Virus genome (UHGV): UHGV-0122175
Length of the DNA: 35,613 nucleotides
Strand: one strand, 5' to 3'
Origin: a virus
Shown here: positions 5,120 through 35,613 of the stretch, one piece after another
Position numbering within the stretch: the first letter of the stretch is position 1
Layout of the letters: the number at the start of each line of letters is the position of its first letter
The notes under the pieces: generated by a model
What the model was told of the DNA's origin: nothing
The model's database searches: none
Seen by the model: only the letters and a program-made list of their open reading frames with translations
Made by a program: the position numbers and the translations under genes

Positions 5120-5140
5120 GAAACCAGAACATGCACACAC

Positions 5141-5441
5141 AAAAAAACCGCTTGCCATGCCGCAATCAGTCAGGTTACATTTCCGCTGCACCTCATAAAA
5201 CGGGTGCCGGGATTCTCAACCCGATACAGAGCAAAGCGCATAACCGCGCAAGCGGTTTTTTTGTGCGTACCGTATTGCCACGTCTTTTTCGCGTCAGAAT
5301 TATGGCGGGGCGTACGGGGCCGACTTCGGTCGGGCCGGATTCTTTGCTCTCCGGTGTTGAGAACCCTGTACGTCTCGCCACCCCGAGATTCTCAACTCTG
5401 GATGGTGAGTTATTTCTATCACCGAGCAAAGAGGCCACACC
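5141..5441. other. Structured non-coding region (candidate ncRNA or regulatory element)
   Basis: About 300 bp without a convincing ORF. It holds a 15-bp long-range inverted repeat (5141..5155 vs 5248..5262), an imperfect 28-nt inverted repeat (5208..5236 vs 5342..5366), a CCGAC-TTCG-GTCGG hairpin and three copies of GATTCTCAAC. Confidence 0.35.
5242..5262 (+). terminator. Candidate intrinsic terminator
   Basis: AACCGC-gcaa-GCGGTT stem followed by a run of seven T. It lies downstream of the 4820..5119 gene. Confidence 0.4.
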
Positions 5442-5672
5442 ATGGCAAACCGCAAACAGCACCGCGCATACGCTGCGCGTCGTCACATCCAGACTGAAAT
5501 CAACCGCAGACTTTTCCGCGCATTCCGCGTCGCGCAAATCATGCACATCAATATGCTGCATGAGCGCAGTCACGCACTATCGAACAGCTATTCCGCCTCT
5601 GTTTTCAGCTATCTGGCGGATGATCTGCGCGAGCTTCAGCAGCTCATCCAGCAGCAAAACAAACTCCATTAA
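5442..5672 (+). CDS. Hypothetical basic protein
   Basis: 76 aa, AAAGAGG ribosome-binding site, Arg-rich N-terminus (MANRKQHRAYAARRHIQTEINRR). Confidence 0.5.
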   Translation: MANRKQHRAYAARRHIQTEINRRLFRAFRVAQIMHINMLHERSHALSNSYSASVFSYLADDLRELQQLIQQQNKLH

Positions 5673-5744
5673 TTACTGTTCCGGGCCTTTCCTGCACCTT
5701 GCGGCGGGAGGCCTTCGCACATCTGTAACAAGAGGATTGCCGCA

Positions 5745-6110
5745 ATGATTCTCGCCAACGACTTTCTTGAATACCTGCTCAACACAGAACGTGATCTTGC
5801 CGCTCGCGTGCGTGATCGTTATGACATGTACCTGAAATCCCTGCCTGTACCGCAGCTCGCTGACGGAAAGATTGTTATTGATGGTCGCTACATGATTGAC
5901 AGCCATGAGGGAAATTACAGGCTTTACCGCATTGAAGGTGGCACCCCGTACGTTATTGGCATTTACCAGCGCCCATCCTCTGCAATCGTCGATGTGATTG
6001 CCGACAGCATCCGCATCACACATCGCCATGCCGACACAGAAGACACCGTGCTGGAAATTCAGCGGCTGGCTACAGTCTGCCGCGACACCCTGAATGGCAT
6101 GACGAAGTAA
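5745..6110 (+). CDS. Hypothetical protein upstream of A
   Basis: 121-aa ORF with AAGAGGA ribosome-binding site, immediately upstream of the replication gene. Confidence 0.6.
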   Translation: MILANDFLEYLLNTERDLAARVRDRYDMYLKSLPVPQLADGKIVIDGRYMIDSHEGNYRLYRIEGGTPYVIGIYQRPSSAIVDVIADSIRITHRHADTEDTVLEIQRLATVCRDTLNGMTK

Positions 6111-6116
6111 ATCACT

Positions 6117-8939
6117 ATGACGGCAGAGTACATCAGGGACTGGCAGCAACCGCGCCACGCAGTGGGGCGTGAAGGAACGGGGATCCCCGCTCCTGAATCC
6201 GCGCTTTCCTCCTGGCTGGATGCCTACCGGGTAGAGAACGAACGCCGCCAGGAAATGGCTGATGCGGCGTTCTCCACCACGCCGCTGGGCAACCTGATTA
6301 ATAAAAGCCTGGACGCACAGGAAAAACAGGACAAAACCATCACACTGGCAGGAGACGCCAGAAAACAGGCACGCGGCGCGGTGGATGAAGCCATGGCCTC
6401 GCTGCGCCTGCTGCCGTCCTATCTACGCGATCCGCTTATTCGCCACCTCTCCTTCCTGCGCAAAAAACAGGAAGCCGATCGCCGGAAAGGCGAAAAGAGC
6501 TGGCAGGCGGAGCGCTATGCACGCGGAACCCTGCGCAAAATATTCGAACGTCTGGATCGCACTGACGGACGCTGGCTGACACCGGGGTATCGCTCCCTTG
6601 CCGGACGCGAACACCTGGACGATTTGCTGTACCTGCCGCAGCTCAACAAACACCAGATACAGACGCTGGCCACCATGACGGCGGCGATGTTCAGCAGCAC
6701 CTTCGAAAAACTCTGCGATGGCTTTGGCGCGACTGATGGCGAACTGACCATGGATGTAACGCTGAAGGCGTATCAGATGCTGGCCCGCATGGCGTTACAC
6801 CTGCACGCCATGCCTCCACATTATGACGCACTGACAACAGACAAAGACCGGAGGAACGAACCGGACACAGAGCTGCTGCCGGGCGCAATCCTTCGCCTGA
6901 CCTGTGCGGAATGGTGGAAACGCAAACTGTGGCTGTTACGTTGCGAGTGGAGAGAAGAACAACTCCGCGCCGCCTGTCTGGTTTCCAGAAAAACATCGCC
7001 CTATCTGAGCCAGGACGCGTTAAGCGAGTTTCGCGCACAGCGCGAGAAAACACGCGATTTCCTGAAAAGTTTCATGCTGGAAAATGAAGACGGGTTCACG
7101 ATTGATCTTGAGACAGTGTATTACGCGGGAGTAAGTAACCCGGTTCACCGTAAGGCAGAAATGATGGCCACCATGAAGGGGCTGGAACTTCTGGCCGAAG
7201 CCCGTGGCGACAAAGCGGTGTTTCTGACTGTCACCTGCCCGTCAAAATACCACGCCACAACAGAGAACGGTCATCCGAATCCCAAATGGAACGGGGCCAC
7301 CATGCGCGACTCCAGCGATTACCTGGTTAACACGTTTTTTGCGGCGGTCCGCAAGAAACTGAACCGCGACGGCCTGCGCTGGTATGGCATCCGCACGGTG
7401 GAGCCTCACCATGACGGCACCGTGCACTGGCATATGATGGTCTTTGCTCATCCGGAAGAAATCGACACCATTGTGTCCCACACCCGCGATATTGCCATTC
7501 AGGAAGATCGTCACGAGCTGGGCGATGATATTACTCCGCGCTTTAAGGCGGAGTATGTCGACGGCTCAAAAGGCACGCCAACCAGCTACATCGCCACCTA
7601 CATCGGAAAAAACCTGGACAGCCGCGCCGTGGATGGCATCGACCCGAAAACGGGCAAGCCACGCGTTGACCACGAAACCGGAAAATCAATGGCCGAGAGC
7701 GTGGAGCGCGCCATCGGCTGGGCGCGCCTTCACCGGGTCCGCCAGTTCCAGTTCTTTGGCATCCCCTCCCGTCAGGTGTGGCGTGAACTGCGCCGCCTTG
7801 CCAGCCAGATGGCACGCAACCCGGAAGGCCCGCAACGGCTGAAGGATGACGCAATGGATGCAGTGCTCGCTGCCGCTGATGCCGGGTGTTTTGCCTCCTA
7901 CATTGAAAAACAGGGCGGCGTACTTGTTCCACGCAAAGACTACCTGATTCGCACCGCCTACGACCTCGCAGATGAGCTGAACGATTACGGCGAACAGAGC
8001 GTACAGATTTACGGGATCTGGTCACCACTCATCGGGGAGTCTTCCCGTGTGTGCACACATCCGGATAACTGGAAGCTGGTAAGACGTAAACCGGAAGCGG
8101 AAGACAGCGCCCGCGAAAATGGTTTTGACCTTCAGGGCGGCCCTGCCGCCCCTTGGACTCGTGGCAATAACTGTCCCCGTGTACAGGAAACGGACAACAA
8201 CGGGACAGAACAGCCGGAAGAACGGCCAGCACCGTGGCCGCAGCTCCCTGACGGCGTTGAAGTGAACGAATGGATGCGCTCACTGAAACGGCACGAACGC
8301 CGGGCGCTGATGCGTTCGCTTCGTGACAAACAGGCAAAAAACAGCCGTGATGAAATGCAGAGCTGGACACAGAGCCGCAAACAGCAGCGGCCTTTGCCTG
8401 ATAACCACGAACTACTCGCTAAAGAATGGCGGGAGTCTGCTGAATCTCTCGGCCTGCATATCGGTGAACAGCAGATGCAGCACCTGTTACGGGGCGGCAG
8501 TCTGTACGTTGACGGCAGCAACATTGCACCGCAGGGATTTGAAATTGTACGCAAACCGGATACCCGACCGGACAGCCGGATCACGCAGCTCTGGCAGCGC
8601 CTGAGCCGTAACCACGGCGTAAGCAGTACGGAGATCCGCCATAACCCGGTCGCCAGCTATCTGGAACAGCTGGGGACATCAGACCCCGAAGCCGCCGCAC
8701 GCCTGGCATCCACACTTCAGCAAGACCAGAACACCATGAAAACACCCGTTACCGTGCTTTCTGACATGCTGCGCGCCATCCGCGACGCAGAGCACGCACA
8801 GAGAATCAGTGAAACCACTGAACGCGCCCGCCGCAAAGCAGACCTGCTGCGGGGTGGCCTGACCAGTGGAAACAAAAAACAGACAGAAACGGGATTCACA
8901 AATCCCGTAAATGAGCAAAAAACGCGCCGCGATATATGA
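6117..8939 (+). CDS. A: Replication initiation protein A (rolling-circle, HUH-type nickase)
   Basis: 940-aa ORF at the end of the early operon. Contains a His-hydrophobic-His motif (TVHWHMMVFAH) and a paired-tyrosine motif (YIATYIGKN) characteristic of phiX174/P2 A-type initiators. Confidence 0.85.
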   Translation: MTAEYIRDWQQPRHAVGREGTGIPAPESALSSWLDAYRVENERRQEMADAAFSTTPLGNLINKSLDAQEKQDKTITLAGDARKQARGAVDEAMASLRLLPSYLRDPLIRHLSFLRKKQEADRRKGEKSWQAERYARGTLRKIFERLDRTDGRWLTPGYRSLAGREHLDDLLYLPQLNKHQIQTLATMTAAMFSSTFEKLCDGFGATDGELTMDVTLKAYQMLARMALHLHAMPPHYDALTTDKDRRNEPDTELLPGAILRLTCAEWWKRKLWLLRCEWREEQLRAACLVSRKTSPYLSQDALSEFRAQREKTRDFLKSFMLENEDGFTIDLETVYYAGVSNPVHRKAEMMATMKGLELLAEARGDKAVFLTVTCPSKYHATTENGHPNPKWNGATMRDSSDYLVNTFFAAVRKKLNRDGLRWYGIRTVEPHHDGTVHWHMMVFAHPEEIDTIVSHTRDIAIQEDRHELGDDITPRFKAEYVDGSKGTPTSYIATYIGKNLDSRAVDGIDPKTGKPRVDHETGKSMAESVERAIGWARLHRVRQFQFFGIPSRQVWRELRRLASQMARNPEGPQRLKDDAMDAVLAAADAGCFASYIEKQGGVLVPRKDYLIRTAYDLADELNDYGEQSVQIYGIWSPLIGESSRVCTHPDNWKLVRRKPEAEDSARENGFDLQGGPAAPWTRGNNCPRVQETDNNGTEQPEERPAPWPQLPDGVEVNEWMRSLKRHERRALMRSLRDKQAKNSRDEMQSWTQSRKQQRPLPDNHELLAKEWRESAESLGLHIGEQQMQHLLRGGSLYVDGSNIAPQGFEIVRKPDTRPDSRITQLWQRLSRNHGVSSTEIRHNPVASYLEQLGTSDPEAAARLASTLQQDQNTMKTPVTVLSDMLRAIRDAEHAQRISETTERARRKADLLRGGLTSGNKKQTETGFTNPVNEQKTRRDI
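8889..8908. repeat. 20-bp palindrome ACGGGATT-n4-AATCCCGT (copy 1, inside the 3' end of A)
   Basis: Perfect 8-bp inverted arms, read directly from the sequence. Confidence 0.6.
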
Positions 8940-8961
8940 AGCGCGCATAAAACAGGCAAAA

Positions 8962-8981
8962 ACGGGATTTCAGAATCCCGT
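8962..8981. repeat. 20-bp palindrome ACGGGATT-n4-AATCCCGT (copy 2, upstream of parM-like gene)
   Basis: Same arms as copy 1. Centres are 73 bp apart, about seven helical turns. Confidence 0.6.
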
Positions 8982-9015
8982 AAACGATTAATTAATCAAC
9001 ATAAGGAAAAGCGAC

Positions 9016-9975
9016 ATGAAAATTTGTATCGATGACGGCTCCACCAACATCAAGCTGGCATGGACTGAGAACGGCGAACGCCGCAACGCCATCAGCCCAA
9101 ACAGCTTCAAGTCGGAATGGTCTGCGCCGTTCGGTGGCACGCAGCCCGCGAACTACATGCTTGATGGCGTGCGCTATGGTTTTGATCCGGTCAGCGATCG
9201 CTTTGTCCAGACGACCGACACGCAATACCAGTACAGCGATGTGAATGTCATTGCCATTCATCACGCGCTGGTCAAATCAGGCATCACACCACAGGAAGTG
9301 GATGTGGTTGTCACCCTGCCACTGAGCGAATATTTCGACACAAACGCACAGCCGGACATGGCCAACATCAACCGCAAAAAAGCGAACGTTATGCGCCCGG
9401 TGGAGTACCAGAACGGCGAAGCATTCACTATCCGTAACGTGCGGGTTATGCCTGAATCCATTCCGGCTGGCTTTAAGGCACTGGCTGACATGAGTCCGTT
9501 TGAATCCCTGCTGATTGTGGATTTGGGCGGAACCACGCTGGATGTGGCAAAGGTTCAGGGGCAACTGGCAGGTATCAGCCAGGTGTTTTGCGATCCACAC
9601 GTAGGCGTTTCTCTGATGGCCGATGCCGTACTGTCGGTGATGGCCACTAACGGTATGCGCACCAGTCACCACATCGCCAATACCATTATCGAACATCGCC
9701 ATGATGAAGCCTGGTTGCGCCAGCACATCCACAATGACGCGCATTACGCCAGCCTGATGGCGGTTATTCGTGAAAAGGAAGAAACACTGAAACAACGAGT
9801 GATCCGCGCGCTGGCGGGGTTTTCGGGTTACGGGCGGGTGATGGTTGTCGGTGGCGGGGCGGAGATTGTGGCACCCGCTATCCGCGAAGCCTGCGGAGTT
9901 AATGCGACTTTCATCGCGGACGGGGTGCCACAGTTTGCTCTGGTTAATGGGCTGTACGCAATGGACAAGGAGTAA
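9016..9975 (+). CDS. parM: Actin-like segregation ATPase, ParM/StbA family
   Basis: 319 aa. N-terminus MKICIDDGSTNIKLAW closely matches the plasmid R1 ParM N-terminus as I recall it (MLVFIDDGSTNIKLQW). Also has the actin-fold phosphate motif IVDLGGTTLD and C-terminal VMVVGGGAE. Strong AAGGAA ribosome-binding site. Confidence 0.8.
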   Translation: MKICIDDGSTNIKLAWTENGERRNAISPNSFKSEWSAPFGGTQPANYMLDGVRYGFDPVSDRFVQTTDTQYQYSDVNVIAIHHALVKSGITPQEVDVVVTLPLSEYFDTNAQPDMANINRKKANVMRPVEYQNGEAFTIRNVRVMPESIPAGFKALADMSPFESLLIVDLGGTTLDVAKVQGQLAGISQVFCDPHVGVSLMADAVLSVMATNGMRTSHHIANTIIEHRHDEAWLRQHIHNDAHYASLMAVIREKEETLKQRVIRALAGFSGYGRVMVVGGGAEIVAPAIREACGVNATFIADGVPQFALVNGLYAMDKE

Positions 9976-9979
9976 ACCA

Positions 9980-10294
9980 ATGACGACTCCAACCAGACGG
10001 ATAAGTTTCTATCTGAAGCCAGCAGCCGTCAAGAGTGAACGAGAAGCGTGTAATTATCTCGACAGCCTGCCAGCCTCCGAACGCAGCCGCGCGCAACGCG
10101 CGGCATTTCTGGCTGGACTGGCGCTTATTAAAAGCGATCCCGCCTTTGCTTACTGGCTGGCTGAATGGCAGGAAGAGGAAGCAATACCACCAAGAAATAA
10201 CATCCGAAACAAGCATACTGGCACATCTGCAACAGAAAACAGTCACAGTAAGAGCCAGTTAAAAAGGAACATTCAGGAGTTTTTCCCAGAATAA
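9980..10294 (+). CDS. parR: ParR-like centromere-binding adaptor
   Basis: 105 aa from ATG 9980, with AAGGAG upstream, directly after parM. The segment YLDSLPASERSRAQRAAFLAGLAL resembles R1 ParR (LDSIPQGERSRLNRAALTAGLAL, from memory). Confidence 0.65.
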   Translation: MTTPTRRISFYLKPAAVKSEREACNYLDSLPASERSRAQRAAFLAGLALIKSDPAFAYWLAEWQEEEAIPPRNNIRNKHTGTSATENSHSKSQLKRNIQEFFPE

Positions 10295-27402: not shown

Positions 27403-27456
27403 TGGCCGTTTCCGGCCTGCATGGCATGATTTGCGCTTTTGGACGGGAGATTCAGC

Positions 27457-28047
27457 GTGCTGATTGGCTATGTAAGGGTATCAACAAATGACCAGAATAC
27501 AGACCTGCAACGAAACGCTCTTGTTTGTGCCGGATGTGAACAAATATTTGAAGATAAATTAAGCGGGACAAAGACAGACCGACCGGGATTAAAACGCGCT
27601 TTAAAGCGCCTTCAAAAAGGTGACACGCTGGTTGTCTGGAAACTGGATCGCCTCGGGCGAAGCATGAAACATCTGATTTCTCTCGTCGGGGAACTACGGG
27701 AGCGAGGGATTAATTTTCGCAGTCTGACCGATAGCATAGATACATCTTCTCCAATGGGGCGTTTTTTCTTCCACGTGATGGGTGCCCTGGCTGAAATGGA
27801 ACGTGAATTAATTGTTGAACGTACACTGGCCGGACTGGCGGCAGCGCGCGCACGGGGGCGCACAGGCGGACGTCGACCGAAGCTGACAAAAGAACAGCAT
27901 GAGCAAATAGCAAGGCTGATTAAAAACGGTCACGACAGAAAACAACTGGCAATAATTTACAGCATTGGTATATCGACAATTTATCGTTACCACCCCGCAG
28001 GAGAATCAAGTGGAACAATTGAGAAGAGTAAACAAAATAACCGCTAA
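27457..28047 (+). CDS. Serine DNA invertase (Gin/Pin/Cin/Hin family)
   Basis: GTG start with GGGAGA ribosome-binding site. N-terminus LIGYVRVSTNDQNTDLQRNAL with the catalytic Ser, and a C-terminal HTH. Sits just outside the invertible segment. Confidence 0.9.
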   Translation: MLIGYVRVSTNDQNTDLQRNALVCAGCEQIFEDKLSGTKTDRPGLKRALKRLQKGDTLVVWKLDRLGRSMKHLISLVGELRERGINFRSLTDSIDTSSPMGRFFFHVMGALAEMERELIVERTLAGLAAARARGRTGGRRPKLTKEQHEQIARLIKNGHDRKQLAIIYSIGISTIYRYHPAGESSGTIEKSKQNNR

Positions 28048-33661: not shown

Positions 33662-33818
33662 AGCTTCAGCCCCTTGTATCCGTTAAATGATTCGGCAACA
33701 ATCATCACCCACCACGCGCGTAATCTCACCCCTGCGCCGTTCTCCCGCCACGGCGACAACAAAAAGCAGTAACCCCCTCCGCACGCACATGCGACCATGC
33801 CGCACAGGGAGGGAACAG
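33662..33818. promoter_or_regulatory. Divergent promoter region between the sheath operon and D
   Basis: 157-bp gap between divergently transcribed late genes. Promoter elements not resolved by eye. Confidence 0.35.
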
Positions 33819-34928
33819 ATGACCGACACCACCATGCAATTGCTCAGTCAGGGCACAGACCCAGTAAAAATGCCGGATTTTGATATTCTCGCGGAGGGTA
33901 AAACGCTGTCAGGCGTGGCAGAGCGCCTGATGAGCCTGTCACTGACCGACAACCGGGGATTTGAGGCGGACCAGCTCACCATCACGCTGGATGATGCCGA
34001 TGGCCAGTTGCAGCTACCGCCACGGGGCGCGCGTCTGACGGTTCTCATTGGCTGGAAAGGAGAGCCGCTGACAGAAAAAGGCACTTACATTGTTGATGAA
34101 ATCGCTCACGAAGGACCGCCGGACAGGCTGACTGTTTCAGCCAGAAGCGCAGATTTTCGGGATGAATTTAACGTTAAACGTGAGGTGTCCTGGCATGATG
34201 TGACCGTTGAGCGTGTGGTATCCGCCATCGCTCATCGGTATGGTCTGAAACCGCAAATCAGCGAAATGCTGATGGATATCGAAATCGACCACGCCGACCA
34301 GACCGAAGAAAGCGACATGTCCTTCCTTACGCGCATGGCGGAAATGCTGGGCGCAATCACCACGGTAAAAAGCGGCAATCTGTTATTCATCATGCCAGGT
34401 GGTGGCGTGAACGCACAGGGCCAGCCGTTGCCCTCGTTCGCCATTACACGCAGCAGCGGCGATCGCCATCAGTTCCGCATTGCTGACCGCGAGGCGTATA
34501 CGGGGGTACGCGCCTACTGGCTTGATCTTAATTACGGGAAAAAGAAAAAAGTCAGCGTGAAACGCCGTAAACCGCCAAAACCCAAAAAGGAGAAAAGCAG
34601 CAGCCGTGAAGGTGATTATATGGAAGGCGCGGAAGGCAATGTGTTTGTGTTACGCAAGACTTATCAGAACGAGCAGGCAGCAAGACGCGCAGCGGCGGCA
34701 AAGTGGCAGCAACTACAACGCGGAGCCGCATCATTCTCCATCACGCTGGCGCGTGGACGTGCAGAACTCTACCCCGAAATGCATGGCACGGTAACAGGAT
34801 TTAAAAGCGAGATTGATAATCAGGACTGGATCATTGCAAAAGCCGAGCACACCATTGATAACAGCGGCTTTACCACGCAGCTTGAGCTTGAGGCAAAAAT
34901 CCCGGAATGGATAGCGGAAACAGAGTGA
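33819..34928 (+). CDS. D: Late control gene D protein (tail/baseplate hub, gpD family)
   Basis: ATG at 33819 with GGGAGGG ribosome-binding site gives 369 aa. Size and position next to ogr match P2 D. Confidence 0.8.
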   Translation: MTDTTMQLLSQGTDPVKMPDFDILAEGKTLSGVAERLMSLSLTDNRGFEADQLTITLDDADGQLQLPPRGARLTVLIGWKGEPLTEKGTYIVDEIAHEGPPDRLTVSARSADFRDEFNVKREVSWHDVTVERVVSAIAHRYGLKPQISEMLMDIEIDHADQTEESDMSFLTRMAEMLGAITTVKSGNLLFIMPGGGVNAQGQPLPSFAITRSSGDRHQFRIADREAYTGVRAYWLDLNYGKKKKVSVKRRKPPKPKKEKSSSREGDYMEGAEGNVFVLRKTYQNEQAARRAAAAKWQQLQRGAASFSITLARGRAELYPEMHGTVTGFKSEIDNQDWIIAKAEHTIDNSGFTTQLELEAKIPEWIAETE

Positions 34929-34970
34929 GCAACTTAGAATAGCGGCAGCACCACGTTAAGGGAGGTCGCT

Positions 34971-35231
34971 ATGTTCCGTTGTCCGCTTTGTGGCGCATCT
35001 GCCCGTATCCGCACCAGTCGTCCGGAAAATGATTCAAACACCGTGCGGCAAAAGTATTACCAGTGTAACAATCTGGAATGCGGCGTATGCTTCTCAACAC
35101 TGGAAGCTTTCCATAAATTCACATCGAAACACGCCTCCGGCGTTCACTCATCAGAAGGTATCCCGTGGCATGAGCTGCCAGCTTCACACAGGGGAAACAA
35201 TCAGATGAGTTTGCCTTTACCTCAGAATTAA
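34971..35231 (+). CDS. ogr: Late gene transcriptional activator Ogr (zinc finger, Ogr/Delta family)
   Basis: 86 aa with the C4 zinc motif CPLCG...(n22)...CNNLECG. Sits at the end of the late region as in P2. Confidence 0.85.
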   Translation: MFRCPLCGASARIRTSRPENDSNTVRQKYYQCNNLECGVCFSTLEAFHKFTSKHASGVHSSEGIPWHELPASHRGNNQMSLPLPQN

Positions 35232-35422
35232 CAGGCAGAATTGCCGGAGTAACAAAAAAGCGATAGATTACGCGCGGGTGCCTTTCGGCTGATGGTCGGA
35301 GGGAATACCCGAAGGCCAGATGTGGAAAGGCCCCGGAAAACATTTCTGTTTAACCGAGGCCCTAACATATCTACCTTAAGCAAGTGATAGGTTAGCGCCT
35401 CTCCAACAAAGGAGCAAGCGCT

Positions 35423-35563
35423 ATGTCGCAAAAATCGCTTATGGCCATCACGTTCTGCGTGACGGTAATCCTCATCATCTGGATGCTGCACGGTTCGCTG
35501 TGTGAAATACGGATGAGCTTCTGGGGAGCGGAGTTTGCGGCGTTCTTACAGTGTAAGCAGTAA
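35423..35563 (+). CDS. hok: Hok/Gef-family type I toxin (small membrane peptide)
   Basis: 46-aa ORF MSQKSLMAITFCVTVILIIWMLHGSLCEIRMSFWGAEFAAFLQCKQ. One TM helix followed by the SLCEI...AAFL.C signature shared with HokA/Hok (from memory). GGAG ribosome-binding site. A perfect 8-bp hairpin lies just 3' at 35571..35592. Confidence 0.65.
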   Translation: MSQKSLMAITFCVTVILIIWMLHGSLCEIRMSFWGAEFAAFLQCKQ

Positions 35564-35613
35564 GGAAACCGCGACGGGGGAGCAATCCCCCGTCAATCGG
35601 TTGCCAGGGTAAA

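Follow-up and report, generated by a model that had tools for sequence, protein, structure and literature searches.

A Hok-family toxin gene between ogr and the attachment site of a P88-like prophage: a probable hok/sok-type locus without mok

The closest described systems to the locus studied here are hok/sok (parB) of plasmid R1 and hokW-sokW of the Stx2 prophage Sp5 (VT2-Sakai). The mok start of R1 is located 59 nt ahead of the hok start, and Hok production is lost when the mok start is mutated or when stops are placed before the hok SD (PMC9841398). [quoted passage not shown] More broadly, 32,532 hok loci have been catalogued and hok was found to be enriched in prophages, while Mok, Sok and mRNA structure were explicitly left unanalysed (Escalera-Maurer et al. 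2026, bioRxiv 10.1101/2025.08.07.668861). Peptides of the type described below belong to Hok cluster 72 of this catalogue, for which the sources cover the coding sequence only; the cluster is represented by the clones 72_1621 and 72_1589, neither of which was among the 3 of 45 constructs that were non-toxic (bioRxiv 10.1101/2025.08.07.668861). Prophage hok genes are common and catalogued, and the locus presented here is of a known kind and already annotated: the near-identical protein WP_000078920.1 is named 'Hok/Gef family protein' by PGAP, and RefSeq names the gene of phage P88 'MokW-like host killing; hok/gef family protein'. Our literature search returned no paper that names P88 together with P2-like and hok.

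We analysed the 35,613 nucleotides of the UHGV virus genome UHGV-0122175 (hereafter the window), which by sequence comparison is a P88-like prophage (Xuanwuvirus, Peduoviridae; P2/186-type). Its left end is 99.9% identical to a prophage of E. coli PCN033 located between dmsA and serS, and the ogr-hok stretch near its right end shares 96-98.6% identity with phages P88, Chuche, PhiR44_2 and P884B11 and 97.9% with phage Shae_phiSM. The ogr-hok stretch was found at a coverage of at least 80% in 1179 of 5426 complete E. coli genomes. We consider it probable that a hok/sok-type type I toxin-antitoxin locus is carried here as accessory cargo of the prophage, between ogr and the attachment site. The features on which this reading builds are as follows.

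33687..34928: gene D (gpD), which passes its own Pfam model and adjoins ogr
34971..35231, plus strand: gene for an ogr/Delta-type zinc-finger late activator (Pfam Ogr_Delta, 52.4 bits; labelled ogr in UTI89, PCN033 and phage records)
35241..35269, plus strand: predicted hok promoter, with -35 TTGCCG (35241-35246), a 17-nt spacer and -10 TAGATT (35264-35269), placed by conservation
35276..35422, plus strand: hok mRNA leader (5' UTR), beginning GGGUGCC, aligned by Rfam RF01794 below its gathering score
35276..35290, plus strand: tac-like 5' element GGGUGCCUUUCGGCU, pairing with the 3' fbi or with the internal GGAAAGGCCCC (35324-35334)
~35382 to ~35325, minus strand: predicted Sok-like antisense RNA of ~58 nt, from promoter position and fold
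35356..35369, plus strand: candidate remnant of a mok initiation region, read from the sequence as SD-like GAGG (35356-35359), 7 nt and AUA (35367-35369)
35389..35417, minus strand: predicted sok promoter, with -35 TTGCTC (35417 to 35412), a 17-nt spacer and -10 TAACCT (35394 to 35389), from homology and conservation
35395..35421, plus strand: local hairpin sequestering the hok SD, anti-SD CCUCUCC (35398-35404) against AAAGGAG (35408-35414), from folds and conservation
35423..35563, plus strand: hok-family toxin ORF of 46 codons, ATG start, TAA stop, from Pfam, PHROG and conservation
35573..35594, plus strand: 3' stem-loop of 9 bp with a GCAA loop, from sequence and compensatory changes
35595..35613, plus strand: spacer toward fbi, from relatives
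35614-35629 (would-be position, past the window end), plus strand: fbi element GGUCGAAAAGGCACCC, from UTI89 (L003 4715-4730), PCN033 (L007) and phage records
about 35653-35687 (outside the window), plus strand: canonical intrinsic terminator AAGCCCGCAG-n8-CUGCGGGUUUUCUUUUU, from UTI89 (L003 4754-4788), PCN033 (L007) and phage records

Compared with R1 hok/sok, the locus shares a Hok/Gef peptide with LCE, a leader that aligns with the Rfam model below its gathering score, the tac-fbi fold-back and a 3' stem-loop before fbi. A cis-antisense RNA, tailed at its 5' end and folded into a hairpin, is predicted as well, and its candidate promoter would overlap the sequence immediately 5' of the hok SD. 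It differs from R1 in having no mok frame (AUA for AUG, and stops in all frames), in a peptide of 46 instead of 52 aa and in its carrier, an integrating phage instead of a plasmid. The likeness to hokW-sokW includes the prophage location, the leader layout, a similar 3' hairpin and an antisense TAACCT with TTGnnn 17 nt upstream. In contrast, hokW-sokW is a separate locus and cluster with a HokW of 51 aa and an in-frame upstream 'mokW' frame of 70 aa. In hokW, a small hairpin separates the ucb-like block from the hok SD; this hairpin is absent in the window, and the Rfam model aligns poorly there. HokW was considered as the Stx-phage homologue of the window gene and was rejected, as VT2-Sakai shows it to be a separate 51-aa locus. 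In addition to hokW/mokW at 57501..57713, the same phage (Sp5/VT2-Sakai) has a distinct hok homologue of 46 aa, which is unannotated and flanked by lom and orf66 (L023 ~702-842; VT2-Sakai 44,7xx); the corresponding 46-aa homologue of EDL933 lies at L013 1670-1810. In related Stx2a phages, the 46-aa homologue beside lom shares 84% DNA identity with the window.

The product of the 46-codon ORF, MSQKSLMAITFCVTVILIIWMLHGSLCEIRMSFWGAEFAAFLQCKQ, is a member of the Hok/Gef family. It matches Pfam HOK_GEF (PF01848) with 30.3 bits (cut-off 22, E 3e-7) over residues 7-44, corresponding to model positions 5-42 of 42, and PHROG 251 ('MokW-like host killing') with 82.5 bits end to end over residues 1-46. 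The NCBIfam models HokA and Hok matched only below their own cut-offs, so the peptide is best regarded as a divergent member and not as one of the named K-12 paralogues. Like other members of the family, this 46-aa peptide combines an N-terminal hydrophobic segment, a single stretch at residues ~6-22, with LCE, which occurs within the motif LCEIR and is followed by AAFL. S25-L-C27-E28 is present, and E37, A39-A40-F41-L42 and C44 are invariant in five lineages; the invariant residues agree with C31/E32/E41 of the family logo. The peptide differs by one residue from WP_000078920.1 (M7 for T7) and by two from 72_1621 (44/46 identical), which in turn is identical to the peptide of phage Chuche. 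These results bear out a preliminary description of the window, made from the letters alone, which had proposed a single-TM Hok/Gef peptide encoded next to ogr; the neighbouring gene, the last of the structural module ahead of the hok locus, indeed passes the Pfam Ogr_Delta model.

The 46-aa hok loci of cluster 72 occur in P88-like P2-type phages, in Stx lambdoid phages beside lom and, rarely, on plasmids. A tblastn search with the peptide (E <= 1e-3) matched 34 of 72,556 plasmids, and none of the PADLOC models matched the hok locus. Within a collection of one genome per species, queried with a five-sequence alignment, we obtained six loci, and apart from three probable contaminants the subtype was confined to Escherichia and Salmonella. 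The three exceptions, a Planococcaceae MAG (L016), a Vagococcus assembly (L017) and a Xanthomonas pisi contig (L020), match the E. coli phage peptide with 98%, 98% and 74%, respectively, and likely reflect assembly contamination.

To describe the control region, the locus was aligned with its relatives (16 sequences from at least six lineages), comprising P88-like phages and prophages, Stx2a phages, EDL933, E. albertii and S. diarizonae as well as one copy from a lambdoid tail region and one from the chromosome near ykgM; the Stx2a phage and EDL933 copies adjoin lom. In this alignment, conserved blocks alternate with variable ones. A generic sigma-70 scan of 34900-35613 called no promoter on either strand, and both promoters were therefore placed by homology and conservation. 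The predicted hok promoter agrees with the consensus at 8 of 12 positions (the scan threshold was 9); its TTGC and TAnAnT are invariant in a 7-locus alignment, in which the neighbouring bases diverge. Transcription is predicted to start at about 35276, where the Rfam leader model also begins: RF01794 'sok (CssrC)' aligns on the plus strand with 35276..35433 over model positions 1-157 (47.9 bits, E 9e-10). This match was seen with an E-value threshold only and stays under the gathering score of 59; at gathering thresholds, Rfam returned no hok/sok family over the window and reported C4 and isrK only. Given an E-value of 9e-10 with full model coverage at a score below gathering, we regard the leader as homologous but divergent. 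Two short ORFs in this region, one of 31 codons (35292..35387) and one of 19 codons (from 35320), were considered as leader peptides and discarded: both stop 36-44 nt short of the hok ATG and are disrupted by indels in other lineages.

The 5' end of the leader is also predicted to take part in a long-range interaction. Its GGGUGCCUUU has a perfect 10-nt complement, AAAGGCACCC, at 57-66 nt past the hok stop, i.e. 7-16 nt beyond the window end. For folding, the window RNA was extended by the identical UTI89 sequence, and the MFE structure of the resulting full-length RNA contains a 5'-3' tac-fbi stem of 15 bp with one bulge. Duplex energies of -23.5 to -31 kcal/mol were obtained for each of 12 loci, even though the 3' strand differs among them and S. 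diarizonae has changes on both strands; only 9 of 4744 background windows attain the observed energy. The long-range tac-fbi pairing of R1-type hok/sok loci is thus found here as well, with fbi itself outside the window. In the alifold consensus, the tac-like element pairs instead with 35324-35334.

The preliminary description had proposed to look for a sok-like antisense promoter on the minus strand of 35300..35430. A candidate promoter can be placed there by homology and conservation, with 6 of 12 consensus positions, while the generic scan gave no call in its favour. Its -10 falls within a 13-nt block, AGGTTAGCGCCTC, which is invariant in the 7-locus alignment; the block of sok -10 and anti-SD is the best-conserved part of the locus (95% identity over nine lineages). 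In hokW-sokW, an identical TAACCT occupies the homologous place, and TTGCCT lies 17 nt upstream of it. The RNA ends predicted from the promoter position and the hairpin would delimit a transcript with a 5' region of ~19 nt (the first ~10 nt unpaired in the MFE), a hairpin GGGCCUCGG...CCGGGGCC and a terminal UUU. The fold has -26 kcal/mol (z = -4.14), and none of 200 shuffles was equally stable. The leader stretch complementary to the Sok tail, 35363-35382, is among the most variable segments (66% identity), which fits a diversifying recognition determinant of Sok, as judged from the alignment.

Family membership, the position inside the att repeats and the co-travel with the phage were observed directly, and the RNA steps of the following scheme are modelled on the anatomy of the locus and on R1 and hokW. 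A hok mRNA of ~410 nt would start near 35276 and end at the terminator about 70 nt past the window. Pairing of the 5' tac with the 3' fbi would keep this full-length RNA inert, until slow 3' trimming to the GCAA-capped hairpin at 35573-35594 frees the 5' end. The antisense RNA (minus strand, ~35382 to ~35325), which would be short and unstable, would pair with the leader and lead to destruction of the mRNA. If transcription of the element stopped, be it because the element is lost, because a superinfecting phage shuts it off or because of induction, the antisense RNA would decay first; Hok could then be made and would depolarise the inner membrane. Initiation would have to occur at the SD of hok itself, which the conserved anti-SD hairpin is predicted to keep closed.

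This last step is where the locus departs from R1. The preliminary description had noted no overlapping mok-like frame, and this absence is confirmed: upstream of the hok ATG, all three frames are closed by stops 27-43 nt away, with no ATG, GTG or TTG in between. Mok-type loci have an AUG where the window has the AUA at 35367-35369, and the spacing to the SD-like GAGG is unchanged. Among six lineages, five (the window, Chuche, Stx2a, EDL933 and 7784) have no frame starting with ATG, GTG or TTG that reaches the hok start; the 7784 locus (the ykgM copy) has only a GTG at -5, which is too close for a leader frame. Only in the O178 lineage is there an upstream ATG, at -76, and its frame is open to +131, past hok. 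Since the lineage lacks a mok leader frame, Hok would be translated from its own SD, AAAGGAG at 35408-35414.

One explanation of this arrangement is that the locus is a silenced relic, in which without mok the SD stays locked in its hairpin, toxin is never made and no present function is left. In R1, translation of Mok up to the hok SD is mandatory (PMC9841398), and a locus that lacks mok and has its SD fully sequestered could, by this rule, be translationally silent. In agreement with this, the mok frame is missing in the five lineages named above, and folds of the full-length and truncated forms of the window RNA both give the hok SD a predicted unpaired probability of about 0. On the other hand, each of the 15 related loci has an unbroken ORF of 46 codons (47 in E. 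albertii), although these loci differ by up to 56/138 nt, and dN/dS between divergent lineages is 0.20-0.62. Furthermore, conservation across unrelated phages, P88-like and Stx lambdoid, extends to the two predicted promoters, the anti-SD block and the tac-fbi pairing, and some other type I toxin mRNAs are activated through processing instead of through a leader ORF. Peptide and control elements thus appear to be under purifying selection, which speaks against a dead relic, and we consider this reading unlikely. We lean, by a modest degree, towards a locus that is functional and independent of mok. Direct initiation, once processing opens the conserved anti-SD hairpin, may be such a route without Mok. 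That the 46-aa hok loci of cluster 72 in general form a functional hok/sok branch without mok, in which translation and Sok repression follow a route not coupled to Mok, is a tentative proposal to which we give somewhat less than even weight.

Compared with the literature consulted, the absence of mok in a phage-associated Hok cluster, as seen by computation, appears to be an only mildly new point. The cluster seems to retain every hallmark of hok mRNA control save mok, the one element that is indispensable according to R1 genetics. Should the mok-less loci be active, the standard account of how hok is regulated would not be general.

The hairpin that follows the hok ORF was already recognised in the preliminary description as perfect, and it is indeed present at 35573-35594: the arms GACGGGGG (35573-35580) and CCCCCGTC (35587-35594) are extended by an additional A-U pair to 9 bp. 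Four of the nine pairs show pairing-preserving changes on both sides among 14 related loci. As a strong GC-rich stem right after the hok stop codon, at which a scan also gives a terminator-like site on the minus strand, this hairpin might be taken for the transcription terminator, so that the unit would end within the window. Since no U-run follows on the plus strand, however, we do not regard it as the hok terminator. Moreover, homology between the phage lineages continues for 74 to 133 nt past the hok stop, over the 10-nt complement of the 5' end and the canonical terminator, before variable cargo begins, which leaves a terminator role of the hairpin very improbable. By analogy, it is probably a stop point or protective end of the 3'-processed, active mRNA; the role of the 3' stem-loop and the tac-fbi arrangement are taken from the R1 model (PMC9841398).

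The fbi element and the canonical terminator were read from near-identical relatives and not from the window itself. By this comparison, the window edge cuts the hok locus, with fbi and terminator 1-75 nt further on. As the terminator lies past the window end, the full transcript would be about 410 nt long, of which the last ~75 nt are cut off. This matters when the hok locus is to be delimited or cloned. The truncation before fbi and terminator is, together with the placement of the att sites, what is new with respect to the preliminary description.

That description had failed to find an attachment-site repeat and had left it unclear whether hok is phage cargo or host flank, proposing comparison with an empty integration site. 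Such a site is available in MG1655, which reads ...GACAAAAAAAGCGCCCGCAGGCGCTTTTTAGATTC... and contains neither ogr nor hok. Together with the prophage ends in PCN033, it defines a 20-bp att core, AAAGCGCCCGCAGGCGCTTT, which is the serS terminator. The core occurs once in MG1655, flanks the prophage on either side in E. coli PCN033 and is also borne by the right prophage end in UTI89 (repeats at L004 2947-2966 in PCN033 and L003 4925-4944 in UTI89). The window contains zero copies of the core, and a direct-repeat search inside the window likewise found no att repeat, because both cores fall outside: the attL core ends 35 bp ahead of window base 1, and the attR core begins 211 bp past base 35613, i.e. 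261 bp downstream of the hok stop. Judged from these alignments, the whole window lies within the att sites. As attR is situated 3' of hok and beyond the window, hok is phage cargo, which settles the question of the earlier description and assigns the toxin gene to the phage. An apparent resemblance over 22 nt between the 3' end of int (window ~55-80) and the right flank in UTI89 had been considered as a possible att core and was discarded when the true one became evident from the MG1655 empty site.

The converse arrangement that the preliminary description had envisaged, with attR between ogr and hok and hok a resident host locus abutting the prophage, has a negligible probability, for although the window stops 50 nt past hok without any att repeat and several resident hok loci exist in E. 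coli chromosomes, the empty-site comparison puts attR beyond hok, and ogr and hok are kept together in phage genome records, in a circular copy and in prophages at both serS and raiA.

With hok assigned to the phage, its neighbourhood in relatives can be compared. In phage Chuche and in the circular NZ_CP148288.1, com and a methyltransferase come after hok, with int next; prophages at the second integration site, raiA, also have ogr-hok, followed by different cargo. By these comparisons, hok is a fixed accessory module of the P88-like phage group, and the slot between it and attP is variable. Similar to the 'moron' genes of the P2 family, it is non-essential, has its own promoter and terminator, lies between the last late-region gene and attP and is adjoined in relatives by a slot for variable cargo (com and methyltransferase, TM2-domain protein, others).

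Between hok and attP/int, this slot holds com and a DNA methyltransferase, a TM2-domain protein with com and methyltransferase, or other hypothetical genes in different P88-like phages (L001 3890-4832; L024 3300-4737; L009, L010 and L011 3' of hok), and it is empty of cargo in the serS-site type represented by the window. An IS200C copy lies between dmsA and attL in PCN033 (L004 2342-2800), just outside the prophage.

The preliminary description had also pointed to a ParMR-like module in the same element, and profile searches support this assignment with ParM at 9016..9975 (plus strand, 275 and 230 bits) and a ParR/StbB-like gene at 9845..10294 (plus strand, 90 bits). Considering that the element also carries ParM/ParR and that one copy was deposited as a circular 34.5-kb 'plasmid', hok may serve a plasmid-like extrachromosomal stage of these phages, which we regard as a weaker reading.

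The deposited copy, NZ_CP148288.1 (1-34461), is a complete P88-like genome, entered for an E. coli isolate as a circular 'plasmid' of 34,461 bp, and may represent either a plasmid state or excised phage DNA. It contains int, cox and gene A, ParM/ParR, the structural genes, ogr and hok, and com with the methyltransferase. In the window, the profile-confirmed partition module resides within an integrating phage. Two 42-nt direct repeats, 8873-8914 and 8946-8987, precede ParM, and as each holds a hairpin, they are a candidate parC centromere. Further upstream, at the Rfam gathering level, an isrK match (5188..5262, plus strand, 63 bits) and a C4 antisense RNA (5298..5385, plus strand, 78.5 bits) represent a c4-ant immunity RNA pair of the P1/P7 type within this P2/186-like prophage, overlapped by an ORF at 5131..5748 with a weak Ash match. 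Finally, a resolvase/invertase gene (27439..28047, plus strand; Resolvase, 171 bits, and HTH_7) is located beside the tail-fibre region and is probably a Gin/Cin-type switch for host-range inversion.
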